A DNA stretch of 64,000 nt from Dehalococcoidia bacterium (lineage in GTDB: Bacteria > Chloroflexota > Dehalococcoidia > UBA2979), in NCBI GenBank assembly GCA_965219085.1, contig OZ244720.1, positions 1,920,001 to 1,984,000 on the forward strand, written 5' to 3'. Each line of letters starts with the position of its first letter. The stretch's first letter is position 1. A model generated the notes under the pieces. That model saw nothing but the letters and a program-made list of their open reading frames with translations. It was not told the origin of the DNA and ran no database searches. Both the position numbers and the translations under genes were made by a program. Positions 4,167-53,819 of the stretch are shown here, one piece after another.

Positions 4167-7100
4167 TCAGTTGGCTTCCGGAGGTCCCTCGCTCTTGGCG
4201 ACCAGTGGCGTGATGGGTGGAATGCCGTCCGGGGACAGTTCGCGGAAGGGCTGATTCGCGAACTCCGGTGCGCCGAGGATGTAGGAGACCCACTCCCCGT
4301 CCGCGAGGGCATAGACGGCCGTGACGCGTCGGCTCTCCGCGCAGGCGACCAGCTCCTCGACGCTGCCTCCCTCGTAGACGACGAGGCTGAAGCCCTCGAC
4401 GGCGGCGCCGCGCAGGCACTCGGGCCACGGCTGCGGCCCAGCGGCGTCAAGGTGATCCCCGAACGGGTCTGGCGAGGGAGGTCCGTTGCCGCCGGCGACC
4501 AGCGGCGTCATGACCGGGAGCCCGTCGGCGAACAGCTCAGTGAACTCGCGGTTGACGAAGTTGGGCGCACCGAGGATGTAGGAGACGTAGACGCCCTCGT
4601 GGAGAACGTAGAGGGCTACGACGTGCCGGCTCTGTGCGCAGGCGGCCAGCTCCTCGACGCTCCCGCCCTCGTAGACGACGAGGCTGAAGCCCTCGGCGAC
4701 TTCGCCGCGCAGGCAGTGGGTCCAGGGCTCGGGGGTCGACTGCTCAGCCTCGCCGAAGGCCACGCGGTAGGTCTTCGTGCGGCTGCCATCGGCCGAGGTC
4801 ACGGTGACGGTGATCTCGCCGAGGCCCGGGAGGGCAATCTGGTGGCCGTCCGCCTTCTCGCCGGCGTCGGGCGGGTCGATCACGACGCCGGCGCCGGACT
4901 GCACCGCCGCGGCCTCGACCGTCGTCTCCGCCACGCCCTCGGCGGCGACCCCCGTGTATTCAGTCTCTCGAGGTGAGAACTCCCCGATCTCGATGTCGCT
5001 CATCGTCAGCGTAGCGAGACGGGCGTCGATCGCGTCGGGCATGTTGTAGCTGTAGACCTTGTCGTCGCTGGCGTCGGCGACGTACATCACGTCGCCGTCG
5101 GACCAGAGGCCGCGCGGGCTGTTGTTGCTGGCCCGGCTCAATATGGTGTTGGGGAACTCCTCGTCGCGGACGCGCTCGAGCTCCTTGTCGCCCTCGTCCT
5201 CCTCGTCCGCGTCCGGCTCCCCGGACAGCACGGGCAGGCGGTAGGCGAAGAGCCGCTTGGCGCCGTGGTCGGAGACCCAGACCGTGACGCCGTCGGACCA
5301 GATGCCGCGCGGGTCGTTGTTGGCTGCGTCGAGGGCGCACTCGGCGAGCAGCTCGCCGCTCTCCAGGTCGTACACGAAGACGCTGTCCTTGCCGCCGTCG
5401 AGCACCCACATCGTCTCGCCGTCGGACCAGATGCCGCGGGCGGCACGGTTGCGCGCCGCGAGTTCGATGTCGCGCTCCGCGAGGCGCTCGCCGCTCTCGA
5501 GGTCGTGGGCGAAGAGCTTGTTCTGGCCGCTGTCGGAGACCCAGAGGATCTTGATCTTGCCATCCGACCAGACGCCGCGGGGCGCGCGGTTGCGCTCGTC
5601 GAGCTCGAACTCACGGTCCTCGACGCGCTCGCCGCTCTTGAGGTCGTAGGCGTAGATGGCGTCGTCGGCGCCCGAGCCGTTCTCGAGGAGCCAGAGGATG
5701 GAGCCATTGGACCAGGAGCCGGTGGGCGAGTCGTGGCTCGAGTCGAGCGACTCGATGTCGCGCTTGACGGTCCACTCGAAGTCGACCTCGCTCGGGGTCG
5801 GGCCTGTGGGGCCGCCACCCCCACCCGGACCGATCGGGCCGATGATGATCGGTGGCCTGCTCGGCCTGGTCGTCACCGTGATGGTCACGTCGATGCTCGC
5901 CGTGGCACCTTCGGTGTCGCGCGCCTCGACCGTGACGGCGTACTCGGACGTCGTAGCGGCGTCGAACGTGACCCCCGTGCCGACCGTGATCTGGCCGTCG
6001 GCGTCGATGACGAACGAAAACACGTCGGGGCCCGAGAGGCTGTACGCGAGCGTGTCGTTCTCGTCGACATCCGTCGCCGTCACGGGCGCGCCGACGTGAT
6101 CGCCGGCCTCCGCGCTCTCCGGCACGCTGCGGGTCGCGGCCTGCGACGCGAACGCGGGCGCGTCGTTCACTGGGTCCACCTCCACGGAGACGGTGGCGAT
6201 GTTCGAGAGTGACGGGCTGCCGGTGTCCCGGGCCCGGTAGGTGAACGTGTCCGCGCCGTGGTAGTCGGCGTTGGGCTCGTAGGTAATCGTGCGGCGATCG
6301 CCCGCACTCGCGGGTTCATTCACGCTCGCGCGTCCGTTGAGCGGCGGGGTGACCACCGTCAGCAGCAACTCGCTCGGGTCCTGCTCGGGGTCGCTGTCGT
6401 TGGCGAGGACGTCGATGGTGATCTCGGTGTCCTCGTCGAAACTGCCGGGGGCATCGGCGACGGCGTCCGGCGGCTCGTTCACGTCCGTGACCGTGATCGT
6501 GACCTCGACGGTGTCGAACGCATTGGAGCTGTCGCTGGCCTTGACGGTGACCGTGTGCGAGGGCGCCGTCTCGTGGTCGAGCGATGCTGCCTCCTTCACC
6601 CGGATCTGGCCACTGGCGCCGTCGATCGTGAACAGATCCGATGCGGGCTCGAGCTCGTACCCCACCGTGTTGCCCGGGTCGGGATCGCTGGCGGTGACGC
6701 GTTCCCCGACCGGGGCATCCGCCCGTGCGTTCTCGGCGATGCTGCGGGTCGGGTTCGCCTCCGTGAACGTCGGCGGGTTGTTGACGACGGGGGCTGCCAG
6801 GACCGAGTTGGTGGACACGGCGACGAGGCTCTTGTTCGGCCCGTGGCCGTCGGTGTATGCGGCGGTCGCGCGCAGGTAGTAGCCGATATCTCCCGCGACG
6901 GGCGTGTAGACGCTCGTCGTGGTGCTGTCGGCGGCCCCGGTGACGGCCGTCCAGGGGCCGCCGCGGCTTGTCGAGCGCTCCCACGTCCACGCCGTCGACC
7001 GCACGCCGTCGGGGTCGCCGAGGGTGGCGGTGTAGTCCGCCTCGGCCTGCGGCCGCGTTGCGGGCAGCGCGAGCATCCCGGGCTCTTCCCTGTTCGTGAC

Positions 7101-10100
7101 GCTGACGGCGACAGCCAATGTCGTGGTGTGGGCACCGGCCGAGACACTCAGCGTCACGTCGTAGACGTTGTTCGGGCCGAAGTCGGTCGCGTCCTCGTAG
7201 TCCGGGGCTGCCTTGAACTCCAGCCTCCCGTTCGGGGACGTGAAGTTGAACTGCTCGCTGTCGCTCCCGGCGAGCGGTTGCCAGGCGATGGTGGCGCTCT
7301 CGGGGTCCGACGCCCGGTACGTCCCGACGAGGAGCGTGCCGCCTTCCTCGACGCCCGGCCTGGCGTCGCCGCTGATCGCGGGCGGCTCGTTGACGGGGTC
7401 GACGGTGACGGTGAGGGCGAGGCTGCCCGTCTTGCCGTCGCTGTCGCGGGCGCTGACCGTGATGCCGTAGACGTTGTTCCCGCCCGAGTCGGCGGGGCGC
7501 TCGTGGTCGGGGACGTTCACGAAGGAGAGCACGCCGGCGGCGGTGAGGGCGAAGTCGAGGCGATCCGTCCCGCCCACCGACCACTCGTACGTGAGGGTCT
7601 GGTCGTTCTCCGGGTCGTTCGCGCTGAAGGTGGCGAGCGTGCCGTCATGGTTCTCGGCCACGGTGAGCGCGTTGTTGTTCACGGTGACGCCGCCCGTCGC
7701 CACGAACGAGATATCCGCGGGCTCGTCGACGTTGGTCACGGTGACGGTCAACGTGACGCTGTCGCTCAGGCCGTAGGGGTCCGTAGCGGTCACAACGACC
7801 TCGTACGAACTCCGCGTCTCGTGGTCGAACTGGACGTTGGCTCGCAGTCCTCCGGCGGCCGGGTTCGCGACGGTGAAAGCGTCCGCGTCACGCCCACCGA
7901 GCGTGTAGGTGAGCTGTTCGCCGTCCGGGTCGGTGGCGGTGACGGTGGCGACGACCGCCGACGTGCTGTTGTTCTCCGCCACCTCCTGGGTGTCCGTGGT
8001 GGCCGCAAACGCCGGCGGCCGGCTGGGGACGACCTTGAGAATGCGGTCCGCGCCTCCGCCGTTCGATGTGGTGAGGTAGAGCGCGCCCCCGCGGCCCAGC
8101 ATGGGGGTCCGGAGGCGCCCGTAGGTACCGTCGAGCTCGGGCACGACCACCTGGCTCACGAACCTCCCGGCCGCGGTGAACTCGAAGATCCGGAGCGACC
8201 GGGTCTTGAGCGTGGCGACCGCGAGCCGGCCGCTCCACTCCTCCCAGTCGGGGCCGTGGAGGAAGATGCCGCCGCTGGTCGCCAGCGTCGGGTCGCCGGA
8301 CGACCATCTGGCCTCGACCGCGTCGGGGAACTTCACGCGGTCGGTCATGGGAACGGACTGGTCGTAGCCGGGTACCGGATCCCATCCGTAGTTGCCGCCC
8401 GAGGTCAGCAGGTTGATCTCGTCGTCCACAGTCGGCCCGTGCTCGACCGACCACATCTGGTTCGTGCCGGGGCGGCGAGCGAGGCCCTGCGGATTGCGGT
8501 GGCCGTGGGTGTAGACGCGCGCCGAGGCGGCGAACGGGTTCCCGGGCGCGCCGACGCCCGTCGACGCATCGACGCGGAGCACCTTCCCGCCCAGCGAGCT
8601 GAGGTCCTGCGGTACCGTCCCGGATGCAGCGTCTCCCGTCGCGATCCAGAGGAACCCGTGCGGGCCGAAGCGCAGCCGGCAACCGTTGTGGATGCTGGCC
8701 GCGGGGATGCCCCCGACGAGGGGATCCGCGACACGCGTGGCCGCGGTGTAGTCCGAGTTCATGGTCCAGGCGATCACCTGCACGACGCGCCCGGTGTGCG
8801 CCTGGCAGGTGTAGAACCGCCGGTTGGAGGCGAATCCGGGATCGACGAGGATCGCCATCAGTCCGGCCTCCCCGCTCACGAACAGGTCGCTGAAGTCCGC
8901 CGTCACGGTCTGGACCGTGCCGCCGGTGAGCCGGGCCTTGAGCGCTCCGCCGCGCTCCGTGAGCAGCATCGTCCCGTCCGGTGCGAAGGCGAGATCCCAG
9001 GGAATGCTGAGGCCGGAGACGAGCGTGACGACGGTGATCCCGGGCGCGGCCTCACGCGCGCCGACCGGTTGGCCCGATTCGACCTCGGCGCTCTTGCCCG
9101 TGCCCTCTCCGTCCGCGTAGGTAGCACGGGCCCGGATGTACATCCCCTCGTCGGCGCTCGTCGGTGTGTAGCTTGCGTCGCTACCGGAAACGCTGGTCCA
9201 GTCGGTCTGGTCCGAGGACCGCTGCCACTGCCAGAACACCGACCGCACGCCCCCGTCCGGGTCGCTGATGGCCGCCCTGAGCACGGTTCCAACCCGGGCC
9301 TGAGCGGGCCCCAGCGACACGGCGCCCGCTTCCTCGACGTTGGTGACCGTGATCGTCACGTCGATGGTGTCGCTCAGCCCGTGGCTGTCCGTGGCGGTCA
9401 CCGCGACGGAGTAGCTGGACGCGGTCTCGTAGTCGAGGGCGGCCCTCGTTCGCAGCTGACCCGTCGAGGCCACGATCGCGAAGGAGCCCGCGTCGGGTCC
9501 GCCCAGCGAGTAGCTCAGCGAGTCGCCGCTGTCGGGATCCGTGGCGACGAGCGGTTCGCCGATGTCCTGACCCGAGGCGGTGTTCTCAGGGATGGTGCGG
9601 GCGCCGGTCTCGGTGTCCGGGAAGGATGGTGAGATCGACTGCAGCGTGAACGCGAGGCTCGCGATCCGCTCGGTCGTGAACCTGCCCGTCCCGCGGATGC
9701 TCGTGATGTGGTCGCGCGGGCTGGTGTCGACGCTGGGGCTGAGCGAGAAGTCGTCGCCCTCCTCGCTGCCGGCATCCCACGGGAAGAGGTCCACCTCGTG
9801 CGAGGGGAGCCAGCGGCCCGAGGCATCGAGCAGTAACAGTCCCGAGACGCCGACGAACCAGTCGTGGCTCGGCGCGATCATCGTCGTGACCGTGACCCGC
9901 GGAAACTCGGTTGTGAACCTGCGGTTGCTCAGGGTGCGGGTGGCAGTGGGACTGATGGAGCCGGTGCTGCCCTCGAGGACGGAGAGAGCAGTGGGCGGGT
10001 CGGCGTTCCGCGCCGTGTTGACTTCGCCGCGGAGGGTCGACGTTCCCCCGATTTCCGCCATCGACTCGACGCCCGGACTGGCCGTGCCCCCGCTCTCGAG

Positions 10101-13100
10101 GAAGGTCACGTCGGCGCTGTGCACCGCGCCGATCAGACGCGAGAAGTGCGCCCCGCCAGGGAGACCGTCGGGCGTGACGTCCCTGTTCCACGTGCCCCGG
10201 AAGCGGATGGTGTAGATGGCCGTCGACGCGAAGGGCGCCACCGAATCGCTCGCCGATGGCGTGAGCGACAGATCCTCCTCGGTCCGTGTCACGGTGATGG
10301 TGTAGGTCTCGGTGGCCATGCCGTCCTGCGCGGTGACTTCAACCTTGATGATGTTTTCGCCCACCGACAGGTCGACCTGGACCGGGCTGGCGGTGCCCAG
10401 GCTGTTGTCGTTGCCGTCGAGGAACTCGACGGCCGCGTTCTCGTTGCTCGTGGTCGCTGCGACCGTCGTCCGGGTCACCGTGTACCCGACTGACGGCGTG
10501 TACGAGGTCGTGCCGCTCATGAACGCGGGGGTCAGCCGCACACCACTCAGCGTCAAGGCGCTGAGCGTGGCGTCGTCGGAGAGCGCCGTCGTCCCCATCC
10601 GCGTGGCCGACCAGGGGCCCTCACCTGCGGCGTTCTCCGCCCGCACCTGCACGTCGTACTGCGTCCCGACCTTGAGTCCCGTGACCGTGGCCGTCAGGTC
10701 GCCGGAGGTCCATGCGCCGGACTCGACGGTCCAGTTCGCCTCCATCGTCTCGTCATCGCTAGTCTTGATGTACCGCAAGTCGTAGGACGAAACCGCCGCG
10801 TCTCCGTCCGTGGCGGGCGCGCTCCATTCGACCGTGAGCCCCGACGCGACGCCGGTCACCGAGTCGATCGCCGGGGCGCCGGGCCGTGTCGTACCGACGC
10901 TGGTGGCGGACCAGGCGCCCTCGCCCGCGCCGTTGACCGCGCGCACCTGCACGTCGTACTGCGTGCCGCTGTCGAGACCCGTGACTTCATGCTCCAGGTC
11001 CGGGCCGCCGGAGCTCCACACCTCCGTCTCGACGGTCCAGTTGGCGTCCATCGTCTCGTCCTCGCCGGTCTTGATGTGGCGCAGGTCGTAGGACGTGATC
11101 TCGTCCCCGCCGTCGCTGGCGGGCTCGCTCCACCCGACGGTGAGCGAGCCGCCTGCCCCGGTGACCGCGTCGATCGTCGGAGCGCCGGGCGTGGTGCGCG
11201 GTGTGGCGGTGCGGACGCCCGACCAGGCGTGTTGGTCGGTCCCCACGACCGCCCGCACCTGCACGTCGTAGGAGACCCCGTTGACGAGGCTGGGCGTCGG
11301 GTTGAGCGTGTATTCGAGCGAGCCGGAGGTCCAGATCGACGTGGTCACCGTCCAGCGGGCGTCTGCCTTGTCCGAGGCGTCGCTGCGGATATGGCGCAGG
11401 TCGTAGGAGGTGACGGTTCCCAGGGTCGTGCTCGTGGGCGCGGTCCACTCGATGGCGATCGAGCGGTCGCCTGGGGTGACCGAGTCGATGGTCGGGGCCT
11501 CGTCCGTCGTGGGTGTGCCGGTGGCGGCGTCCGACCAGACGCCGTCGCCGCCGGCGTTCACCCCGCGCACCTGCACGTCGTATTCGGCGTTCCCGGTCAG
11601 GCCGGTGACGACGTGCGAGAGAGCGCCGGAGCCGTCGGTCCAGACGTCCTGCAGGATGGTCCAGTTGGCGTCCACCGTCTCATCGGCGCTGGTCAGGATG
11701 TAGCGCAGGTCGTAGGCGGTGATGTCGGACGCGCCCGTGTTGGTAGGGGCAGTCCAGGTGACGGTGAGCGCCTCGCTGCCGGCCGCGACCGAGTCGACAG
11801 CGGGGGCGGCGGGGCTTGACCGGTGGCCGTACACCGTGAGGCTCCACGAGTTGAGCCGGGCGGCCGTCCCGCCACCCACGTGGTCCGTGATGCGCAGCTT
11901 CCAGACGCCGGCGGGATCCTCGCCAAGGTGCCTGGCGGAACCGAAGCGCACGGGGCCGTCCAGGTTGCACTGGCCCGGGAGGATGCCAAACAACGACGTG
12001 CACTCCCCGCTGCCAACGAGGTAGTGCGGGGAGAGCACGGAGACCGTGCCCGATGGCGACTCGAGCTCGATCTGCAGGTCCCTGAACGCGGCCCTGAGGG
12101 AGGGACGAATCGAGACGAATTCGGTGAACTGCACGCCGGAGCCCATGGTGATGGAGCTGGTGACGGTGGTGGGCGTGCCCGAGGAGGGGAGGTCGGGGAT
12201 CGCCAGATTGGCGGCGCCCGACTCCCGCGTCTCCTCGATGAACAGCGGAAGGCTGGTCCAGCCGACCGCCAGGTCCATCGCCTCCTTGGCGTCGACCACG
12301 CCGAAGCCGTACTCGTGGTTGAACGCGTAGCGCTGGGTCGCGGAGCCGTACTGGAGGGCGCCCTCCTCCCAGCCGGTGTTCGATGGATCGTTCTTCCGGG
12401 CGGAGCCCGCCAGGATGAGCTTCACGTCGCGCCAGGTCAGGTCGGCGTAGGCGCCCCGCAGGAGCGCGGCCACCCCGGACACGATGGCGGCCGTGGAAGA
12501 GGTCCCGCCGAAGTTGTTCCGGTAGCGGCCGTAGTTGTCGGTGGTGGTGATGGCCGCTGGCAAGTAGCTGGCGCCGGAAGGCGCGCATACCCACAGGTTG
12601 GCGCCCTGTTCGGAGTAGTGCCACCGGACACCCCGATCCGTGACCGCACAGGCGGCCGTAGCGGTGTAGTGGTTCCGGAATCCGCTCAGGTTGGAGTTGG
12701 CGCCGACCACCGCGTCGTTGCCGCCGGACCGCACATACAACACCCCCTTGCCGCCGTAGCCCTCCGTGACCCCTCGCACCACCGCCCTTTCCCAGCCCGA
12801 GGGCGCCGTGGCATACCCGGGACCCTCGGTTACCGACCAGCTGTTGTTGCTGATGGCCGTGGTCTCCATCCCCCGCGTCATCGCGTCCGCCGCATTGGCA
12901 TGGTTGTAGTCGTCGATGAGGTTGTAGACATAGATCTGGGCGCGGGGCGCGACCCCCCGAACGCCGATGCCGTTGTCCCGCGCGGCGATGAGGCCGGCGG
13001 CGCCGGTGCCGTGGGTATTTCCGGGATTGAACACGGCTGCGCCGCCGTAGCCGTAGTTGCGGTCCGCAATCACGTTGGGCGCCAGGTCCGGGTGCCCGGC

Positions 13101-14996
13101 GTCAAAGCCGTCGTCGACCAGGGCCACGGTGGCGCCGGCCCCGAGGTGGCCGGCCGCCCACACCTCCCGGACGTTGATGTCCTCGCCCGGCGTCCCGCCC
13201 AGCTGTCCGGTGTTGTCCAGGTGCCACTGGCACCCGGAGAGGGGGTCGCTCAGGGGGTCGCTCAGGGACGCGGTGAGCGCCGTGCACCCGTCGAAGAATT
13301 CGCCGTAGACGTAGTCCTCCCACATGCGCAGCCCGTAACGCCCCGACGTGGGCCCGGAGCTACCGGGCAAACGCGTGACCTTGAGGTAGTACGTTCCCGC
13401 GTCGAGGCGGTCGCGGAGCGTGAACCCGGCGGGCGCGCTCGCGGTGTACCTGCTCTCGAAGATGTTCGCGTCAACGGTGTTGGCGTCCGCGTCCAGCAAC
13501 TCCCCGGCGATGGCGACGGCGGAGCCCGCGGCGACGAGGAGGACATGGGTCGCTTCGGCGAGCTCGATGCGGAAGTAGTCGACGTCGTCCGCCGGGCTGA
13601 TGGTTCCCGCCTTCGGGAACAGCGGGATGAGCGGCTCCGCCGCCGCGGTGGTGCTTCCCGGCTCGGCACCCCGGTTCACGTGGAGCGCGTACACACCGGT
13701 TTCCGCGGGGAAGCCCCCAACCCGCACGTAGTAGGTCCCCACGTCGAGGGTCACACGCACGAAGAAGCGGTTGCTCCCCAGGGGGAATTCCTCGCTGCCT
13801 GTGACCTCCCTACTCCCGCTCAGCCAGAGGTCGCCCCACGTGCGGGCGGGGCCGGTGCTGTGAACCAGCAGGGTGGTGCGCGCGGTCAGCGTGATGCGGA
13901 ACCAGTCCCGGTCGGTCCTCGCCGGATCGATGATCCCCCAGCCGAAGCCGCCGACTTCGACGTCCTGGGCATCGGACCTCGCCGTGGAGTCGGCGACCGT
14001 CGTTGTTCCCAGGACATAAGCGCCCGTGGCGCCGCCGCTGCCCGTGACCTTGACGTAGTAGGTCCCCGCCTGGAGAGAGCCCCAGAGCAGGAAGTTGTGG
14101 CGCCCGTGCAGCTCGTCCCCCAGGTCGTTCTCGCGGAGCAGGTCCCCGTTCTCGTCCAGCAGCTGCCCCACCGTGTCGAGGTCGCCGCGGGTGTAGATGA
14201 TGATGCCGGTCGCCGCCGTCAGCTCGAGCGTGAAGTAGTCGACGTCGGTCCCGGACTCGATCACCCCGCCCATGCGCGTGGTCAGCGGCAGCGTGGTCGC
14301 CGTCTGGAGCGTGCCGCCGTGCTCGGCGGGCGTCCCCGTCGCGGTCGCCGACCAGGCGCCGCCGGTCGCGGCCACGGCCCGCACCTGCACGTCGTAGCCC
14401 GTGCCGTTGGTGAGCCCGGAGAGCACGCCTTCCAGACTCCCGGAGGTCCAGAACTCCTCCAGTACCGTCCAGTTGCCGTCGGCCTTGTCCGTGGCCGTGC
14501 TCTCGATGTAGCGCACGTCGTAGGCCGTGATCTTCGTGGTGGCGGCGGCGGGACCGCTCCACCCGATCGTGACAGCGCCGTCGCCGGCGATGATGGTGTC
14601 GATGACGGGACCGGGGATCCGGGGCGTGCCCGTGGAGGTGGACGACCACTGGCCGTCGCCGGTGGTAACGGCCCGCATCTGCACGTCGTAGCCGACATCG
14701 TTGTCGAGGTCCTCGAGGGTGTAGGTGAGGTCGCCCGACCCGGATGACCAGACGTCCTCGAGCGCGGTCCAGTTGGCGTCGGCCTTGTCCGCCGCGTCAC
14801 TGCGGATGTGGCGCAGATCGTAGGCGGTGATGCCCGTCACGCCGGTGGGCGCGGTCCACTCGATCGTCAGCGAGCCGTCTCCGGCGGTGACGGAGTCGAT
14901 CGTGGGGGCGGCGATGGGCGTCTGCGCAAGAGTGCGACCCGGGGTCACCATCAGCCAGAGCAGGATGAAGGCCGCGAGCAGTCGAGGCCATCTCAT
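4167..14996 (-). CDS. Giant secreted multi-enzyme protein (~3609 aa): signal peptide, FN3 x2, PPC-like x3, S8 kexin-like protease plus P domain, FN3 x4, cadherin-like sandwich, spondin_N, cadherin, PQQ-dependent sugar (glucose/sorbosone) dehydrogenase, cadherin/Ig repeats, Gly-Pro linker, beta-propeller, duplicated C-terminal domain
   Basis: Signal MRWPRLLAAFILLWLMVTPGRTLAQ (ATG 14996). S8 motifs VALVDDG, THGTGAAGLIAA, SGGND, FGGTSSTAAIVSG. Spondin-like AHFSRLIGAVH...MIAPSHDWFVGV. GSDH-like PWDLAFAPDG, HNGCRLRFGP, GHRNPQGLA. FN3 YDVQVRAV; cadherin LDYE/ATDPD. Confidence 0.93.
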   Translation of the reverse strand: MRWPRLLAAFILLWLMVTPGRTLAQTPIAAPTIDSVTAGDGSLTIEWTAPTGVTGITAYDLRHIRSDAADKADANWTALEDVWSSGSGDLTYTLEDLDNDVGYDVQMRAVTTGDGQWSSTSTGTPRIPGPVIDTIIAGDGAVTIGWSGPAAATTKITAYDVRYIESTATDKADGNWTVLEEFWTSGSLEGVLSGLTNGTGYDVQVRAVAATGGAWSATATGTPAEHGGTLQTATTLPLTTRMGGVIESGTDVDYFTLELTAATGIIIYTRGDLDTVGQLLDENGDLLRENDLGDELHGRHNFLLWGSLQAGTYYVKVTGSGGATGAYVLGTTTVADSTARSDAQDVEVGGFGWGIIDPARTDRDWFRITLTARTTLLVHSTGPARTWGDLWLSGSREVTGSEEFPLGSNRFFVRVTLDVGTYYVRVGGFPAETGVYALHVNRGAEPGSTTAAAEPLIPLFPKAGTISPADDVDYFRIELAEATHVLLVAAGSAVAIAGELLDADANTVDANIFESRYTASAPAGFTLRDRLDAGTYYLKVTRLPGSSGPTSGRYGLRMWEDYVYGEFFDGCTALTASLSDPLSDPLSGCQWHLDNTGQLGGTPGEDINVREVWAAGHLGAGATVALVDDGFDAGHPDLAPNVIADRNYGYGGAAVFNPGNTHGTGAAGLIAARDNGIGVRGVAPRAQIYVYNLIDDYNHANAADAMTRGMETTAISNNSWSVTEGPGYATAPSGWERAVVRGVTEGYGGKGVLYVRSGGNDAVVGANSNLSGFRNHYTATAACAVTDRGVRWHYSEQGANLWVCAPSGASYLPAAITTTDNYGRYRNNFGGTSSTAAIVSGVAALLRGAYADLTWRDVKLILAGSARKNDPSNTGWEEGALQYGSATQRYAFNHEYGFGVVDAKEAMDLAVGWTSLPLFIEETRESGAANLAIPDLPSSGTPTTVTSSITMGSGVQFTEFVSIRPSLRAAFRDLQIELESPSGTVSVLSPHYLVGSGECTSLFGILPGQCNLDGPVRFGSARHLGEDPAGVWKLRITDHVGGGTAARLNSWSLTVYGHRSSPAAPAVDSVAAGSEALTVTWTAPTNTGASDITAYDLRYILTSADETVDANWTILQDVWTDGSGALSHVVTGLTGNAEYDVQVRGVNAGGDGVWSDAATGTPTTDEAPTIDSVTPGDRSIAIEWTAPTSTTLGTVTSYDLRHIRSDASDKADARWTVTTSIWTSGSLEYTLNPTPSLVNGVSYDVQVRAVVGTDQHAWSGVRTATPRTTPGAPTIDAVTGAGGSLTVGWSEPASDGGDEITSYDLRHIKTGEDETMDANWTVETEVWSSGGPDLEHEVTGLDSGTQYDVQVRAVNGAGEGAWSATSVGTTRPGAPAIDSVTGVASGLTVEWSAPATDGDAAVSSYDLRYIKTSDDETMEANWTVESGAWTSGDLTATVTGLKVGTQYDVQVRAENAAGEGPWSATRMGTTALSDDATLSALTLSGVRLTPAFMSGTTSYTPSVGYTVTRTTVAATTSNENAAVEFLDGNDNSLGTASPVQVDLSVGENIIKVEVTAQDGMATETYTITVTRTEEDLSLTPSASDSVAPFASTAIYTIRFRGTWNRDVTPDGLPGGAHFSRLIGAVHSADVTFLESGGTASPGVESMAEIGGTSTLRGEVNTARNADPPTALSVLEGSTGSISPTATRTLSNRRFTTEFPRVTVTTMIAPSHDWFVGVSGLLLLDASGRWLPSHEVDLFPWDAGSEEGDDFSLSPSVDTSPRDHITSIRGTGRFTTERIASLAFTLQSISPSFPDTETGARTIPENTASGQDIGEPLVATDPDSGDSLSYSLGGPDAGSFAIVASTGQLRTRAALDYETASSYSVAVTATDSHGLSDTIDVTITVTNVEEAGAVSLGPAQARVGTVLRAAISDPDGGVRSVFWQWQRSSDQTDWTSVSGSDASYTPTSADEGMYIRARATYADGEGTGKSAEVESGQPVGAREAAPGITVVTLVSGLSIPWDLAFAPDGTMLLTERGGALKARLTGGTVQTVTADFSDLFVSGEAGLMAILVDPGFASNRRFYTCQAHTGRVVQVIAWTMNSDYTAATRVADPLVGGIPAASIHNGCRLRFGPHGFLWIATGDAASGTVPQDLSSLGGKVLRVDASTGVGAPGNPFAASARVYTHGHRNPQGLARRPGTNQMWSVEHGPTVDDEINLLTSGGNYGWDPVPGYDQSVPMTDRVKFPDAVEARWSSGDPTLATSGGIFLHGPDWEEWSGRLAVATLKTRSLRIFEFTAAGRFVSQVVVPELDGTYGRLRTPMLGRGGALYLTTSNGGGADRILKVVPSRPPAFAATTDTQEVAENNSTSAVVATVTATDPDGEQLTYTLGGRDADAFTVANPAAGGLRANVQFDHETRSSYEVVVTATDPYGLSDSVTLTVTVTNVDEPADISFVATGGVTVNNNALTVAENHDGTLATFSANDPENDQTLTYEWSVGGTDRLDFALTAAGVLSFVNVPDHERPADSGGNNVYGITVSARDSDGKTGSLALTVTVDPVNEPPAISGDARPGVEEGGTLLVGTYRASDPESATIAWQPLAGSDSEQFNFTSPNGRLEFKAAPDYEDATDFGPNNVYDVTLSVSAGAHTTTLAVAVSVTNREEPGMLALPATRPQAEADYTATLGDPDGVRSTAWTWERSTSRGGPWTAVTGAADSTTTSVYTPVAGDIGYYLRATAAYTDGHGPNKSLVAVSTNSVLAAPVVNNPPTFTEANPTRSIAENARADAPVGERVTASDPDPGNTVGYELEPASDLFTIDGASGQIRVKEAASLDHETAPSHTVTVKASDSSNAFDTVEVTITVTDVNEPPDAVADAPGSFDEDTEITIDVLANDSDPEQDPSELLLTVVTPPLNGRASVNEPASAGDRRTITYEPNADYHGADTFTYRARDTGSPSLSNIATVSVEVDPVNDAPAFASQAATRSVPESAEAGDHVGAPVTATDVDENDTLAYSLSGPDVFSFVIDADGQITVGTGVTFDAATTSEYAVTVEARDTEGATASIDVTITVTTRPSRPPIIIGPIGPGGGGGPTGPTPSEVDFEWTVKRDIESLDSSHDSPTGSWSNGSILWLLENGSGADDAIYAYDLKSGERVEDREFELDERNRAPRGVWSDGKIKILWVSDSGQNKLFAHDLESGERLAERDIELAARNRAARGIWSDGETMWVLDGGKDSVFVYDLESGELLAECALDAANNDPRGIWSDGVTVWVSDHGAKRLFAYRLPVLSGEPDADEEDEGDKELERVRDEEFPNTILSRASNNSPRGLWSDGDVMYVADASDDKVYSYNMPDAIDARLATLTMSDIEIGEFSPRETEYTGVAAEGVAETTVEAAAVQSGAGVVIDPPDAGEKADGHQIALPGLGEITVTVTSADGSRTKTYRVAFGEAEQSTPEPWTHCLRGEVAEGFSLVVYEGGSVEELAACAQSRHVVALYVLHEGVYVSYILGAPNFVNREFTELFADGLPVMTPLVAGGNGPPSPDPFGDHLDAAGPQPWPECLRGAAVEGFSLVVYEGGSVEELVACAESRRVTAVYALADGEWVSYILGAPEFANQPFRELSPDGIPPITPLVAKSEGPPEAN

Positions 14997-15227
14997 GGAG
15001 AACGGCCCTCCGTTGGCCCCGCTGAAACAGCACCCACCCGGACAACGCACGACCCGGCCGCCACCCCAACCGCAAAGTCGGGGCAGGTGCCGGCCGGCAC
15101 CCGCCCGTTCTCATCGTGCGTCCATCAGTCATGCGTCGAGCAGCCGACCCGCCCCGTCGATCCCTCTCACTCGTCCTACGCTAATCGTCCAGAAACAGCG
15201 ACTGCGGGGGCCGTCGGTCCGTCCGCC

Positions 15228-15431: not shown

Positions 15432-16789
15432 AGCTTTAGCCCTGATCCACCGAAGAAGAGCGGGCGAGGGGCTGCGGTTGGGTGCTCCGCTGTAGCTGGG
15501 ACAATGGGTTTTGAGAATTCACGTCACAGCCACAGGGAGCACCCATTCGATGCTACCAACGAGCGACCCCGACCGGATAGACATCGCCTTCGATGACGAC
15601 CGCCTCGTGGACCACGCGGGCCTGCTGCTCCCGGCCACGCTCGCCCAGCATCTCGGTCTGCAAGAGCTCGCCGACAGCTGCGTCGACCTCGGTGACGCGC
15701 CGGGCCGGGCGAACGCCGGCGACAAGCTGCTGACCCTCATCGCCTCGGCGCTCGCGGGCGGCGACTGCATCGACGACGCCGATGCGTTGCGCGCCGGCGG
15801 GACGGCGAGCGTGCTGGGTTGCACGGTCAAGGCGCCGTCCACCCTGGGCACGTTCCTGCGCAGCTTCCGCTGGGGCCACGTCCGCCAGCTCGACCGCGTC
15901 AGCCGCGAGTTGCTCGCTCGCAGCTGGGCGGCCGGGGCGGGACCCGGCGACGCGCCGTTCACGATCGACCTCGACTCGACGATCTGCGAGACCTACGGCT
16001 TGGCGAAGGAGGGCGCCCGGCACCACGGCTACACGGGCGCGCGCGGCTACCACCCGCTGCTCGCGGTGGCGGCCGGGACGGGTGACGTGCTGATGGCGCG
16101 GCTGCGCGAGGGCCGCGCCAACACTGCCCGCGGCGCCGCCCACTTCCTGCGTGAGACGGTGGCGCGGGTCCGCGCTGCCGGAGCGAGCGGGCAGCTCACG
16201 ATGCGCGCCGACAGCGGCTTCTACAACCACGCGGTCGTCGCCGCCTGCCGCGCGCTGGATGTCCGCTTCTCGGTCACGATTCGCCAGCAACCGAACGTAC
16301 GCACGCTGATCGAGGCGATCCCGGAAGCGGACTGGACGCCGATCCCGTACTGGCTGCCGGGCGGCGCCGCTGTCGCCGAGACGTCCTACACCCCGTTCCG
16401 GCACGCGAAGGACGCCAGCGCGGTCCGGCTCATCGTGCGGCGCGTGAGGCCGGCGCCCGGCTCACAGCTGGCGCTCTTCGCGACGTACAGCTACCACGCC
16501 TTCATCACCGACCGCGCGGGGGAGATGATGGAGCTCGAGACCGACCATCGCCGTCACGCCGAGATCGAGAACGCGATCCGCGACCTCAAGTACGGCGTCG
16601 GGCTCAACCATCTCCCCTCGGGCCGCTTCGCCGCGAACGCGGCATGGCTCGCGGTGCAGGTGATCGCGCACAACCTCGCCCGCTGGACGGCGCGGCTGGG
16701 GCTCGGCGAGGGAATCGTGACGACCAGGACGCTCAGGCGGCGCTACTTCGCTCTCGCCGGACGGCTCACCCACTTCTATGAGGGACGGT

Positions 16790-17050
16790 CTTTCCGCAAG
16801 GCCGACGTGGCGGCCTTCTCCGGGTATGGCGCTCCATTCAAGCCGCTCGTGATGTCCGGTCGCGGAGCCTGTGCCAAGCTTCTATCCGCACTCTCGGTGG
16901 GCTACAGCGAGCCCGGTGCATGAAGGCACATCCTGCTTCCAGGGGGCGCTGCTATCTCTGCCGCGTCCTCGATGGGACAAGTGGGTGCTCGCAGTCGCCC
17001 GTGCTCGGCATCACGTGCGTGGCTTCGTTCGCGCTCGGGTCTTCCTTCCT
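16790..17050 (-). ncRNA. Putative bridge/seek RNA of IS1111 copy A (boundaries approximate)
   Basis: Scaffold conserved with 52640-52900. Contains CACCCACT (complement of target flank), GGCAGAG (6/7 match to the other flank) and ATAGAAG (donor end). Confidence 0.75.
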
Positions 17051-17088
17051 GATCTCCGGTCCCCGCCGGCTGAGGCGGCGCCTCCCGG

Positions 17089-18177
17089 CTACGCGGCCTC
17101 GCGGGCCACGGCGTGACGCAGCGGCTCGTAGACCTCCCCGCTCTTCCACAGCGCGAGCAGCAGCACCGCCAACCGCCTCGCGACGGCCACGACCGCGCGC
17201 TTCTTCGCGTTGCCCGCCCCTGTTCCCGCGTAGCGCTCACCCCAGCGACGCAGGTCGCTATCGGGTCCGAAGGGACCGAGGATGTAGTGCGCGGCCTGCA
17301 CCAGCAGCCGCCGCAAGCCCGCGTCGCCGCTCTTGCCGATGCCGAGCTGCGGCGCGCGCTCCCCTGAGTCGCGCTGCCGCGGCACGAGCCCGAGGTAGGC
17401 CCCCACCTCCCGGTTCTGCGGGAAGCGCCCCGGGTTCTCGATCGTCAGCACGAACGTGAGCGCGGTGATCGGCCCCACGCCGGTGACCTGGCGCAGCGCC
17501 GCGGTCTCGGGGTGGGCCTCGCACAACGCCTCGACCTCCCGCCCGGCCGCCGCGGTGCGCACGGTCAGCTCGCCAATCGCCTCCACCAGCGGCAGCAGCG
17601 CCGGGCGCAGCCCGTCGGGGATGTGGTCCGCCGTCTTGCGGTGAAAGGCCGCGGCCGTGCACGACGGCAGCGCGGCGCCGCAGGCCTTGACGGCCCCGCG
17701 CACGTGGTTGATGAGCAGCGTCCTCGATCGCACCAGCGCGTCGCGGGCGCGCACCACGGCGAGGTCGTGCTGACTCTGCTCGCTCCTGTGGCGGATCGGG
17801 GCGAGCAACTCCGGGTCGAAGCGCCCCAGCCGCGCCAGCCACGCGGCGTCGAGCCGGTCGGTCTTGCGCTGGCTGCCGGCGATCAGCGCGACCTGGCGAG
17901 GGTTGGCGACGACCACCTCATGGCCGAGGTCCGCCACGACGCGGCTCAGCCACGGCGAGCGCGGCCCCGCCTCGAGCACGACCCGCGCCGGGGAGAGGCC
18001 GGTCAGCGCTGCGCCCAGCGCCGCAGCCGCGGTGCGGACGCGCCGCTCGCGTATCACCTCCCCGCCGGCGCCGAGGGCGTGGACGTGCGTGTAACGATCG
18101 CCCACGTCGAGGCCGACGGTGATGGCGGGCCCATCCTTGCCTTCAATGCTCCGCGTCGTTGCGATATGCTGCTGCAT
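17089..18177 (-). CDS. IS110-family DEDD recombinase/transposase, intact
   Basis: VGLDVG, VVLEAG, RKTDRLDA, GVGPITA, YLGLVPRQRDSG. RBS AGGAG upstream. Confidence 0.95.
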   Translation of the reverse strand: MQQHIATTRSIEGKDGPAITVGLDVGDRYTHVHALGAGGEVIRERRVRTAAAALGAALTGLSPARVVLEAGPRSPWLSRVVADLGHEVVVANPRQVALIAGSQRKTDRLDAAWLARLGRFDPELLAPIRHRSEQSQHDLAVVRARDALVRSRTLLINHVRGAVKACGAALPSCTAAAFHRKTADHIPDGLRPALLPLVEAIGELTVRTAAAGREVEALCEAHPETAALRQVTGVGPITALTFVLTIENPGRFPQNREVGAYLGLVPRQRDSGERAPQLGIGKSGDAGLRRLLVQAAHYILGPFGPDSDLRRWGERYAGTGAGNAKKRAVVAVARRLAVLLLALWKSGEVYEPLRHAVAREAA

Positions 18178-18606
18178 GGCCGGTCTCCTACCTCGTCAAG
18201 GCTCTTCCGAGCCGCTCTTGGCCCATCGAGGCCGCTGTTTCAGGGGGCGAGTATCCCCCTTGAGGAGGAGGCCGGCCCTCATGCCATCTCGGCCCCAGCG
18301 CTGGACCCTGCACCTCCCCAGGCGCTGGCCCTGGGCCGGGCAGCTGGCAGCCGCGCTCGCGCGACTACGGGCGTTACCGCTCCCGGCCTGACGCCCCCTC
18401 ACAGCGCCGGCCCGGGTCCGAGGCTCGCGCCAGCACGCCCGCGCACGCCTCGCGCTCCCGCGCGCTCGCGCCCTCAGCGCCCCCGAGCCGCGCTGAGCGA
18501 CGGCTCCTCGCTCCGGCACCGCCCGGCGAACGCCGGCGCACCCGCCGAACTCTCCGCCAGCCGGCATCCCGCCCCCTCAAGCTTCGATCGGTGTATCCGG
18601 GTTTAG

Positions 18607-19784
18607 GGATGGTCTGAACAACTCGCCTGAGCGGGTGAGCGGATGCGATCATGGGGTGCGGACCCGGAGAGAGGCGCCCCATGCAGCAGCGTTCGTTCGG
18701 CAGCGTCGAGTACGAGCACAAGAAGGTCAAGACACGGCGGCAGACGTTCCTCGAGCGCATGGACAGGCTCGTCCCCTAGGCTGAGCTGGAGCAGCGCATC
18801 GCGCCCGTCTACCCGAAGCCGGGCCGCGGACGCCGTCCCTACCCGCTGCGCGTGATGCTGCGCATCCACTGCCTGCAGCTCTGGTTCAATCTCAGCGACC
18901 CCGGCATGGAGCAGGAACTCTACGACTCCCGCTCGATGCTCGAGTTCGCCGGTCTCAGCCTCTCCGAGCCGATTCCCGATGAGACGACGATCCTCCATTT
19001 CCGCCACCTACTGGAGCGTCATCAGCTGGGAACGGCGCTGTTCGCGACGATCAACGCGCATCTGGCACGGCAGGGGCTGCAGGTGCGCGAGGGGACGATC
19101 GTCGACTCCACGATCATCAGCGCGCCGTCCTCGACGAAGAACCGGGAACGGGCGCGCGACCCCGAGATGCATCAGACCAGCAAGGGCCGGCAGTGGTTCT
19201 TCGGGATGAAGCTGCACAGCGGCACGGATGCGCGGACGGGGCTGGTCCACAGCCTGCACACGACGGCGGCGAACGTCTCCGACGTGAGCGAGGCGCATCG
19301 CCTGTTGCACGGCGCTGAGAGCGCGGTGTGGGGCGATGCCGGCTACCAGGGAGTGGAGAAGCGCCCGGAGCACGCGGGGTCGGAGCTGAGCTGGCAGGTG
19401 GCGATGCGCCCGGGTCTCAGGCGGCGGCTGGCGCCGGGGGGCGCTGAGGCGCAGGCGGAGCGGCGGAAGGCCTCGCTGCGAGCGAAGGCGGAGCATCCGT
19501 TTCTCTACGTGAAGCGGCACTTCGGATACGCGAAGGTGCGCTACCGGGGTCTTGAGAAGAACCGCCAGCGTCTCGCGCTGCTGCTCGGCTTCGCGAACCT
19601 GTTGCGAGCCGAGCCTCAGCTCGCGTGATCGCGGGAGCGCTGCGTCCGGAATCGCTCGTGCGGGCGATCCCGCAGCGGAATCGGGGCGGGATCGCCCCCT
19701 GAACCGCGGCAACGGCCCCGCAGCGCAGCGCGGTACGCCGATCGACCCGCACCGCGCCCGATACGCCACCTGTTCAGATCATCC
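18607..19784 (+). mobile_element. IS5-family element
   Basis: IRs GGATGGTCTGAACA / TGTTCAGATCATCC, flanked by TTAG and CTAG. Confidence 0.88.
18681..19628 (+). pseudogene. IS5-family transposase with premature stop (TAG at 18777-18779, at a typical Trp position)
   Basis: MQQRSFGSVEY...RLVP*AELEQRIAP...; IVDSTII, RDPEMHQTSKG, WGDAGYQG, RAKAEHPF. Confidence 0.88.
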
Positions 19785-19788
19785 CTAG

Positions 19789-20964
19789 TGTCCTGAGTTG
19801 TTAACGCGATAAACAAGCGGGTATGATGTTGGTACAGCGGGGTGTTGCCCGTGTGGGGCAGACGCTGGAGTGTCATGAGTACCCGACTTGGCCGGCCGAC
19901 GGTGGCGGTTGTACTGAGCGACGATGAGCGTGAGACGCTGGAACGGTGGGCGCGCCGACCGACATCAGCTCAGGCGTTGGCGCTGCGCTGCCGGATCGTG
20001 CTTGCTGTGGCAGAAGGGACCCCGAATACCGAGATCGCCGCGGCGCTTGGTTGCCATCCGGTGACCGCGGGCAAATGGCGCAGACGCTTTGCGCAGCGGC
20101 GGCTCGATGGACTGAGCGATGAGCCGCGCCCCGGTGCACCGCGCACGATCAGCGACGCCCAGATTGAAGCGGTGATCGTCAAGACACTGGAAGAACAACC
20201 GCACAACGCGACGCAGTGGTCGACCAGATCGATGGCCGCCGCGGTGGGGATGTCGCAGACGGCGATCTCCAAGATCTGGCGCGCCTTTGGCCTCAAGCCA
20301 CACCTCGTGGAGCACTTCAAGCTGTCGCCGGACCCGCAGTTCATCGACAAGGTGCGCGACGTGGCTGGACTCTATCTCAACCCACCGGAGGCAGCGGTCG
20401 TCTTGTGTGTTGACGAGAAGACCCAGATCCAGGCACTCGACCGCACCGCCCGATGCTGCCGATGATGCCGAGCGTTCCGCGACGCCAGACCCACGACTAC
20501 GTCCGTCACGGCGCCACCAATCTCTACGCGGCGCTTGACGCCGCCTCGGGCCACGTGATCGCGGACATGACCCCGCGACACCGTGCCCGGGAGTTCAAGC
20601 AGTTCCTCACCCTCATCGACCGCAGCGTGCCCGACGAACTCGCGATGCATGTCGTGTTGGACAACGTCGCCACGCACCGCACCCCGGAGATCCAGCGCTG
20701 GCTGCGGCGTCATCCCCGGTTCACGTTTCATTTCACCCCGGCCTACAGCTCCTGGATGAACCTCGTGGAGCGCTGGTTCGCGGAGCTCACCACCAAATGG
20801 CTCAGGCGCGGCACTCATCACGGCGTCGCTGACCTGATCCGTGCAGTGGAGGCCTGGGTCGCCGACTGGAACGAGCACCCGCGCCCCTTCATCTGGCACA
20901 AGACCGCCGACCAAATCTTCGACAACCTCACCGGATATCTCAATCGCATTCCCAACTCAGGACA
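19789..20964 (+). mobile_element. IS630-family element
   Basis: IRs TGTCCTGAGTT / AACTCAGGACA with CTAG on both sides. Confidence 0.9.
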
Positions 20965-20968
20965 CTAG
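19875..20968 (+). pseudogene. IS630-family transposase with frameshift near 20450
   Basis: HTH; VLCVDEKTQIQALDR, then another frame: HDYVRHG, VVLDN, FTPAYSSWMNLVERWF. Confidence 0.88.
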
Positions 20969-52908: not shown

Positions 52909-53819
52909 GTCGGGTAAGGGGCTGGCGCGGTACGAGCCGTAGGCAGTGGCGCTTATCCCGCCGGTTTCCCGCCGGTGCTCACTTCCACGTGCCGTAGCCA
53001 ACGCCCGTTTCCAGCCCCTCCCCTTCGAACCGTGCATGCGGTTCTCCCGCACACGGCTCACCGACGTCCTTCACCGGATGGCATTCGGCCCCGCCCGCCA
53101 CGCACGCTCCACAACGTCCCTGCGGTGGACTTTGTCGTAGAGCGCGTGAAAACGTCGCTCGGCTCGGCCTTGGCCGCCCGGTAGAGCGTGTGCTGTAGTT
53201 CTCGGACCTTTTGCTCGGCGGTTCTAGCCACGACGGGCACTCGCCAATCCTTCCCCAAGCTACACGCGCAGACGAAGTAGCGGCCCTTCCCTCACCGGCG
53301 GTTCTGTTGTCCGCTCGGCTCAATCGGTACTATGGCCGCCTCCGACTCCCTCCCGGCCGGCTACCCACTTCCCGGTTCGTCACCGGTTATAGGGCACCTC
53401 GCTCCGGCACCAATCCGCAGGCGCCGGACCGGGGAGGGCCTCCCCAGTTCCCGCCGTCACCTTCCACACGTTCCGCGCCCTCTACGCCGGGAGGTTCTTC
53501 GGGGTTGCGCCTCCAGGCTCTTCACCCCTTCCATGGCCTTCGCCCTGACGGCCGGGGCTCGGCTCCTCCTTGTTCCCACCATGCGGTGGGTATGTTCACG
53601 ACGCGGCAGACTTCGCTTCATGCTGCGGACCGCGTGGTCGCTCCCCCTCAAGGGCTTTCGACATCGGGCTCCGGCCCGGCCCGTTTCCAGACCCGACCGC
53701 CGATCTGCTACCGGGCCCCCTGGCAGTTACCCGGACCGGACTTTCACCGGTAGGCGACGACGAGCATGTCTCCGGACTGATCAGATCATTCTGCACCGTC
53801 CTTCGACTTCAGGGCGCAC
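52909..53819 (-). ncRNA. Group II intron (911 nt) with almost completely deleted RT/maturase ORF
   Basis: 5' GTGCG; domain V GAGCCGTGTGCGGGAGAACCGCATGCACGGTTC; 3' CTTACCCGAC. ORF stub KVRELQHTLYRAAKA. Boundaries confirmed by comparison with intron-less copy A (GAAAG|ACCGTCCC). Confidence 0.92.

Follow-up and report, generated by a model that had tools for sequence, protein, structure and literature searches.

Insertion sequences (IS) of the IS110 family, the IS1111 group among them, are RNA-guided, a mechanism in print since 2024 (PMC11187229; PMC11208160), with seekRNAs demonstrated experimentally for ISEc11, ISKpn4, ISPa11 and ISPst6 (Siddiquee et al. 2024, PMC11187229) and bridge RNAs predicted for 93% of IS1111 elements, within the right end (PMC11208160). 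As described in these reports, IS1111-group transposases are quoted at 330-350 aa and carry the C-terminal signature GL-P----S(t)G (PMC11187229), the inverted repeats, about 7-17 bp long, lie subterminally and leave short extensions at the element ends (PMC11208160), the seekRNA places its top-strand target match 5' of its bottom-strand match, and the flanks must match the guide for excision (PMC11187229). Here we analyze a 64,000-nt stretch of a Dehalococcoidia bacterium genome (hereafter the window; assembly GCA_965219085.1, contig OZ244720.1, positions 1,920,001 to 1,984,000, forward strand), in which a 1515-bp IS110-family element of the IS1111 type, designated copy A, interrupts another transposase gene. 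We consider it highly probable that copy A, itself probably still mobile, selects its insertion site via an RNA encoded in its 314-nt right end. Copy A thus adds a member to the known seekRNA/bridge RNA elements and the mechanism itself is not new, nor are natural retargeting and tandem right-end units, both already reported (PMC11187229; bioRxiv 10.64898/2026.08.14.744561); what stands out is a four-way natural retargeting series, complete with recombinant misfits, within one genome.

By the published descriptions, on which the likeness is judged rather than on sequence comparison, copy A resembles ISEc11, ISKpn4, ISPa11 and ISPst6 in its DEDD transposase with a GL-P----SG motif, its subterminal inverted repeats, its long downstream noncoding region with two short target matches in the same guide order, its insertion in one orientation with no duplication, a promoter that is predicted to form on the circle alone, and natural retargeting between relatives (PMC11187229). 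It departs from them in transposase length (362 aa against the quoted 330-350), in its host, an uncultured lineage whose nearest IS relatives lie in Dehalococcoidia genome bins, and in its targets, which here are coding sequences of other insertion sequences whereas the elements described there enter REP, attC or transposon ends; the retargeting, moreover, occurs here between proteins 88-92% identical in one genome, compared with 72% for ISEc11 and ISXne4 (PMC11187229). With IS621 (Durrant et al. 2024, PMC11208160; PDB 8wt6) copy A shares the reported plan of one RNA with target-binding and donor-binding loops, each reading both strands around a 2-nt core, and of a recombinase that joins a DEDD domain to a serine-bearing C-domain. 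IS621, in contrast, is described as carrying its RNA in the left end upstream of the gene, with the guide order reversed, inverted repeats of only 2-3 bp and a CT core on the strand usually written (PMC11208160), and only the C-terminal domain of the copy A protein aligns with its recombinase (residues 227-356, E=1.4e-8).

Copy A occupies positions 16775-18289 of the window on the minus strand, with the AG core counted at its left end; since this core is common to both ends, 16773-18287 are equally valid limits. The boundaries are based on 11 long copies and on empty IS1380 sites, and they narrow the range of the original prediction (16767-18294), which did contain the element but included its flanks. 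In IS orientation its start is AG-ATGGC-ATGAGGGCCGG and its end CCGTCCCTCAT-AGA, where ATGAGGGCCGG is the 11-bp left subterminal inverted repeat (18272-18282, minus strand) and CCGTCCCTCAT the right one (16778-16788, minus strand); the two agree at 10 of 11 positions (ATGAGGGCCGG against ATGAGGGACGG) and are set back 7 nt from the left end, core included, and 3 nt from the right. Between them lies a gene for a 362-aa transposase (17089-18177, minus strand) with a DEDD (RuvC-like) N-domain (PF01548, DEDD_Tnp_IS110, E=1.3e-18) and a Transposase_20 C-domain (PF02371, E=6.9e-19), which scores 231.9 bits against the NCBIfam model NF033542, 'IS110 family RNA-guided transposase' (cut-off 140), and whose motif GLVPRQRDSG (residues 263-272) fits the IS1111 signature. 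Similarity to PDB entries is confined to the C-domain, with ISCro4 (E=3.7e-10) ahead of IS621. The noncoding sequence amounts to 314 nt 3' of the gene (16775-17088) and 112 nt 5' of it (18178-18289); both the longer downstream region and the inverted-repeat length fall within what is described for IS1111. Judged by these sequence features, the assignment of copy A to the IS1111 type of the IS110 family is supported by all hallmarks tested.

In the genome, a single contig of 3.3 Mb, the element has 22 matches, of which 11 are long copies, and a megablast search of the element against plasmids gave no match. Copy A shares 99.9% identity with L002 and 100% with L004 over the part that L004 retains, which points to recent copying; the transposase reading frames are intact in all guide classes described below, and copy A is probably still mobile.

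The host gene encodes an IS1380-family transposase, as originally proposed (NF033539, 312 bits against a cut-off of 180). Its 5' part spans 15511-16774 (plus strand; NF033539, Pfam DDE_Tnp_1_4, E=5e-49), and its 3' remainder, 18290-18391 (plus strand), continues in a frame reading RPQRWTLHLPRRWPW... that aligns with intact copies. The last 8 nt of the 5' part (16767-16774, plus-strand CACCCACT) constitute the right half of the target together with the core, and 18290-18294 (CGGCC) the left half. These flanks confirm the target, GGCCG-AG-TGGGTG in IS orientation, and the predicted circle junction, ATAGA-AG-ATGGCA, that had been put forward. Where other IS1380 copies of the genome are empty, they read CACCCA-CT-CGGC.. 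and have CT only once, and in the occupied copy one CT stands on either side of the element; the single CT of the empty sites implies that no target duplication takes place and that a 2-nt core, AG in IS orientation, is shared, the same AG core being found at every junction examined. Just downstream of the insertion the host gene has one extra C, and it is this 1-nt indel that shifts its frame; we therefore rejected the idea that a CT duplication kept the IS1380 frame intact, as the empty sites have a single CT and the indel is separate. One metatranscriptome contig joins 16774 to 18294 across copy A and represents an empty site in a related community.

Within the right end lies a predicted seekRNA/bridge RNA module of ~140 nt with two internal loops (16865-17004, minus strand; genome 1936865-1937004), which scores 123 bits with our covariance model R1. 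The four motifs singled out by the original prediction all lie where it had placed them when read on the minus strand, as are all module features below: CACCCACT at 16980-16987, GGCAGAG at 16956-16962, TGCCTTC at 16922-16928 and ATAGAAG at 16879-16885. The first, or target, loop is closed by an outer helix (helix 1) whose 5' strand GGGCGACUGC (16991-17000) pairs with the 3' strand GCAGCGCCC (16944-16952), and the anticipated short stem between the two target motifs is a hairpin, GUCC-CAUCGA-GGAC (helix 2, 16965-16978). On the 5' side of that hairpin, the right-target guide CACCCACU (16980-16987) complements the top strand of the core and right flank (AG-TGGGTG) without mismatch, 8/8 to 16767-16774; a perfect 8-mer of this kind arises in 124 of 20000 shuffles of the 314-nt right end, a test run on copy A only. 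On its 3' side, the left-target guide with core, GGCAG-AG (16956-16962), has the sequence of the top strand on the left side of the insertion point: it agrees at 6 of 7 positions with copy A's own flank (GGCCG-AG) and at 7 of 7 with the flanks of L002 and L004 (GGCAG-AG), and it covaries with the site, although at copy A taken alone the match stays within chance. What gives this 6/7 match weight is that its place in the loop is fixed and that it covaries in the other copies. The arrangement, with the top-strand complement CACCCACU 5' of the top-strand-identical GGCAGAG, is that described for IS1111.

The copies elsewhere in the genome provide a direct view of what varies in this module. When their right ends are aligned, a conserved scaffold is interrupted by two short hypervariable segments, which define four guide classes and change together with the flanks in each: copy A, L002 and L004 pair guides CACCCACU/GGCAGAG with the site GGC(A/C)G-AG-TGGGTG; L007-L011 pair GGCGGUAGC/UCAAGAG with TCAAG-AG-CTACCGCC; L005 pairs CCGAGCUGCU/CCACCAG with CCACC-AG-CAGCTCGT; and L006 pairs CAGGCUGCU/CGCAUAG with CGCAT-AG-CAGCCTG. 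For L005 and L006 the true right flanks were predicted from the guide and then found beyond extra right-end pieces. Between classes 8-14 of the 16 guide columns differ, compared with 9-18 of the ~127 other columns of the RNA module, and the transposases of the four classes are 88-92% identical. Three of the classes target genes of the IS1380, IS5 and IS3 families, and the other targets a site that lies ~40 nt before another IS110-family gene and adjoins an IS256 remnant. Empty sites persist in the same genome, with 0 perfect and 9 one-mismatch sites for the IS1380-type guides, 6 and 3 for the IS5-type, 0 and 2 for the L005 class, and 10 and 1 for the IS3-type.

The correspondence extends well beyond this genome. 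Scanning one genome per species yielded 80 related loci, the nearest in Dehalococcoidia/Tepidiformaceae genome bins (69-98% protein identity) and the more distant in Acidobacteriota, Gemmatimonadota, Chloroflexia and further bins (about 50-59%), with the RNA scaffold found 3' of the gene in nearly all of them. Across 60 distinct right junctions from this genome and the 80 loci, the longest complementary run between guide and flank has a median of 8 nt (mean for mismatched pairs, 3.3), and runs of at least 8 nt occur at 35 of the 60 true junctions but in only 10 of 3480 combinations in which guide and flank belong to different elements. At 48 left junctions, the guide and the 7 nt preceding the core share 4.77 identities, compared with 1.88 in mismatched pairs, a figure to be read in the knowledge that only ~5 of the 7 are truly variable. 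These counts rest on ends defined by regular expressions and omit L063, L094 and L098, which have no recognized scaffold, as well as loci without a recognized end; the low score of L057 is an artifact of the expression having taken a spurious second end. The two loop strands thus change in step with the insertion site in four classes of one genome and in relatives from several phyla, a pattern that supports the proposed reading of the right end as a guide-bearing, covarying two-loop module.

The fold of the module was assessed by comparison, single-sequence folds being uninformative in such G+C-rich sequence. Alignment A1 comprises 47 of 53 distinct RNA modules, with L041, L057, L074, L075, L080 and L081 omitted as near-duplicates or truncated. 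From A1, RNAalifold retrieves the first loop's outer helix and the second loop's inner helices; it misses the inner hairpin of the target loop owing to alignment gaps, and that helix was accordingly set by hand and its pairs counted. In the structure thus written out 86.4% of cells are paired, compared with 76.5% in shuffles, none of 500 of which reach the observed value, and with 33-48% when the partners are slid. Helix 1 is 98.1% paired, with changes on both sides in 4 of 9 pairs across the 47 sequences; in helix 2, two-sided changes are seen at pair 28/67 in 22 and at pair 29/66 in 21 of the 47 sequences; and in the donor-loop inner helix GCAC/GUGC around the hairpin GGGCU...AGCCC (helices 4 and 5, 16888-16917), helix 4 is 98.9% and helix 5 85.2% paired, the latter with two-sided changes in 5 of 5 pairs. 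Helices 1, 2, 4 and 5 are 82-99% paired with many double changes, and covariation is seen in four of five helices; the outer donor-loop helix GUGCC/GGCAC, at 60.4% paired, was dropped from the model. The scaffold common to nearly all relatives begins with GACUGCG and a first variable strand; after a hairpin comes a second variable strand, with AG at its end, and 3 nt further on GCAGC. AUGCAC, a hairpin and GUGCG-AU(A/G)GAAG follow. A covariance model built from A1 finds 11 full and 2 partial modules in the genome, all of them within copies or tandem pieces.

The second loop appears to read the element's own ends, and here the two candidate guides differ in standing. The left-donor guide AUAGAAG (16879-16885) repeats the final 5 nt of the right end followed by the AG core, and the variable base of AU(A/G)GAAG agrees with that of the right end CAT(A/G)GA-AG in all 40 of 40 elements, being A in 17 and G in 23. 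The candidate right-donor guide UGCCUUC (16922-16928, core 6-mer GCCUUC) has one mismatch to the left-end top strand G-ATGGC: as TGCCTTC it matches the complement of AGATGGCA at 6 of 7 positions, and it partly overlaps the weak outer helix. Among the 40 elements the 6-mer preceding AUGCAC agrees on average at 4.55 of 6 positions with the complement of the left-end extension; the first base of the 6-mer, which varies, fits in 30 of the 40, where shuffles give a mean of 12.7. Both sets of counts use 40 of the 47 alignment rows, leaving out four in which no right end was found and three with an inverted-repeat score below 10, and they overstate the evidence since related sequences are not independent. 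Of the two donor-loop matches originally proposed, TGCCTTC has weaker evidence than the other guides. A different right-donor guide, UCAUGC, which would pair with GCATGA in the left inverted repeat, was set aside, given that AUGCAC is nearly invariant and forms helix 4.

It is conceivable, if unlikely, that only the target loop guides, as in a 'short seekRNA', with the ends recognized by the protein through the subterminal inverted repeats and ATAGAAG and TGCCTTC being incidental or serving another purpose. The published account of ISEc11 gives this alternative its precedent, as an 82-nt short seekRNA with target matches only sufficed for transposition and outperformed the long form (PMC11187229); in our alignment the outer donor helix is poorly supported, the imperfect TGCCTTC overlaps it, and the ends are so conserved among relatives that covariation has little power. 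The common right-end polymorphism CATAGA/CATGGA is nonetheless mirrored in the RNA of every element counted, both of its states occur in related clades (for example L045 and L049), and the variable base of the left-end extension is matched far more often than expected, with relatedness inflating both figures; donor-complementary loops are, furthermore, reported for IS1111 bridge RNAs (PMC11208160). We accordingly retain a two-loop RNA as the preferred reading.

Several observations weigh against site selection by such an RNA and deserve to be set out together. Copy A's left guide has a mismatch to its own site, and its 6/7 agreement is by itself not beyond chance, being reached in 16246 of 20000 shuffles; the right-donor guide carries a constant internal mismatch; the outer donor-loop helix is paired in only 60.4% of cells; and the transposase slightly exceeds the length quoted for its group. 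The original prediction had named RNA folding and a covariance model as checks, and of these the covariance model and helix covariation bear it out, whereas minimum-free-energy folds are no better than those of shuffles (z=-0.38 for the whole right end and -0.59 for a 166-nt core). A scan of positions 16000-19000 with Rfam 15, at E up to 1, returned no family match, and a sequence scan of the linear copy found no sigma-70-like promoter or intrinsic terminator. Contigs from RNA libraries, discussed below, cannot give strand, ends or true transcription, and may reflect DNA carry-over.

A further difficulty is posed by copies whose guides do not fit their sites. The prediction had held that the same guide segments at an unrelated target would tell against it, and formally such a copy exists: L003 (genome 340394-341911) has copy A's guides at an IS5-type target. 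Yet 42 of the 44 differences between L003 and copy A fall in the first 245 nt, the remaining ~1270 nt being identical apart from 2 differences, and these first ~245 nt belong to another lineage, close to L006 over the first 100 nt. This clustering marks L003 as a recombinant whose right part was replaced after insertion, and the copy is therefore no evidence against guiding. Comparable misfits are L041, L053 and L065, all from other genomes; L041 is a mosaic in which blocks with 0 differences from L034 alternate with blocks of 11-12 per 100 nt, while L053 and L065 are without explanation. Given the reported need for a flank-guide match in excision (PMC11187229), copies such as L003 are predicted to be stranded unless the RNA of another class helps in trans.

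The anatomy of the element, its complementarity to the flanks, the covariation of guides with flanks and ends and that of the helices are matters of observation, and together with published relatives they allow the following cycle to be proposed. Copy A would excise as a circle whose joint, CATAGA-AG-ATGGCA, creates a promoter from a -35-like TTGCGG in the right end (16794-16799, minus strand) and, 17 nt further on, a -10-like GAAGAT that forms only across the joined right end, core and left end. Activity of this pair on the circle is presumed by analogy with the published circle-junction promoter (PMC11187229); among 42 distinct right ends of relatives, 37 have a TTG(A/C)(C/G) hexamer, mostly TTGAC, at a like distance, 23-26 nt from the end. 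Transcription through the transposase gene into the right end would then yield the ~140-nt RNA with its two internal loops, in which the 5' strand of the target loop, CACCCACU, may pair with the top strand of the core and right half-site and the 3' strand, GGCAG-AG, with the bottom strand of the left half-site and core, while GCCUUC and AUAGAAG in the donor loop would pair likewise with the left and right ends of the circle. The DEDD/serine recombinase would exchange strands at the shared AG core, with insertion in one orientation and without duplication into GGCAG-AG-TGGGTG of an IS1380-family transposase gene as the expected outcome. That the RNA is made, processed and protein-bound, and the chemistry of recombination, are here extrapolated from the published relatives.

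In keeping with such expression, though subject to the limits on RNA-library contigs given above, one metatranscriptome run contains contigs identical to 16786-16889 and 16960-17061, and contigs cover parts of the stretch in 4 runs from 2 studies; none in these 4 runs spans the RNA module, and uncovered parts prove nothing. The lack of a full-length RNA contig and of a promoter-like site in the linear form, along with the 1-nt indel in the host IS1380 gene by the site and the mismatched base of the left guide, could also be taken to mean that copy A is a stranded relic, its matches recording a past insertion and its RNA production and movement lost. We regard this as very unlikely: the 362-aa reading frame is intact, the near-identity to L002 and full identity to the retained part of L004 speak for recent copying, and no promoter is to be expected in a linear IS1111 copy, where by the published account it forms on the circle (PMC11187229). 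That the protein or DNA structure picks the site, with the complementarity between right end and flank being coincidental or a captured flank, is barely credible and already contradicted by the guide-flank covariation, for even though one of copy A's two matches is not significant alone and some copies sit at sites not matching their guides, four classes with near-identical proteins (88-92%) occupy four unrelated sites, the class differences fall exactly in the two loop strands, the signal holds across 60 junctions and several phyla, and flank capture would not give two matches in reversed order on opposite strands.

With RNA-guided selection as the preferred reading, the value of the locus lies in a clean natural experiment: four guide sets, transposases 88-92% identical and identical donor ends, all in one genome, where occupied and empty target copies offer a ready guide-by-target matrix for specificity, for mismatch tolerance (as in the 6/7 match of copy A) and for the action of the RNA in trans. 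The RNA scaffold (GACUGCG ... GCAGC; AUGCAC ... GUGCG-AU(A/G)GAAG) is deeply conserved, from Chloroflexota to Acidobacteriota and Gemmatimonadota bins, and stands outside Rfam. Identical donor ends and recombination between lineages, as evident in the mosaics L003 and L041, would lead to the shuffling of guide cassettes and transposase modules. On this basis we tentatively raise the possibility, which we think has the odds somewhat against it, that the coresident IS1111-type lineages are a small radiation whose guide cassettes have been retargeted to different IS coding sequences or to the edge of an IS110 element, and which act as hyperparasites, using other insertion sequences as multicopy safe harbors and disabling them, with cassettes and modules shuffled and RNAs acting in trans. 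If true, shuffling would, in addition to point mutation, be a natural way for elements to be retargeted and for copies to become stranded, and insertion sequences aimed at other insertion sequences bear on how RNA-guided elements persist in small, IS-rich genomes.

Several copies are followed by tandem partial right-end units, at genome positions 1261334-1261392 (after L002), 893320-893395 (after L005) and 2850004-2850738 (after L006), and also at L044 and L080. Each unit starts at an internal AG and ends in an authentic right end, CATAGA-AG; L006 has four, one of them with a complete second RNA module, and L080, from an Acidobacteriaceae bin, shows six right ends 155 nt apart (its own and five tandem partial units). 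In their tandem noncoding units beside a transposase module, each ending in an authentic right end, the tails of L002, L005, L006, L044 and L080 recall the modular circles described for ISPpu9 (PMC12288879) and the 'expanded IS110 loci' of a 2026 preprint, which reports tandem arrays with left-donor-only matches (bioRxiv 10.64898/2026.08.14.744561). Those reports rest on circle sequencing, whereas here only the genomic end products are seen; the internal breakpoints match neither guide consistently, a comparison of the breakpoints after L002, L005 and L006 with target and donor half-sites having found no consistent match. A rearrangement between elements is suggested by L004 (genome 1333208-1334571), which is identical to copy A but cut off inside the RNA donor loop after ...CAGGATGTGC and joined at the cut to IS1380 sequence in opposite orientation.

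The window holds a second copy, L010 (51384-53834, plus strand), of the IS5-type guide class, whose right end is interrupted between AAAG and ACCG by a 911-nt group II intron without an open reading frame, on the opposite strand (52909-53819, minus strand; Rfam Intron_gpII, 44.8 bits; group-II-D1D4-4, 95.1 bits). An identical intron-bearing copy, L011 (genome 1857513-1859966), lies in a different IS5 copy with different flanks, and the 2.45-kb composite thus seems to have moved as a unit. Around copy A the region is a nest of insertion sequences, with transposase-like reading frames adjoining it at 18852-19628 and 19842-20968 (both plus strand), and just upstream of this cluster a 3627-aa reading frame (4167-15050, minus strand) combines repeated fibronectin-like and cadherin-like stretches with a subtilisin-like segment.

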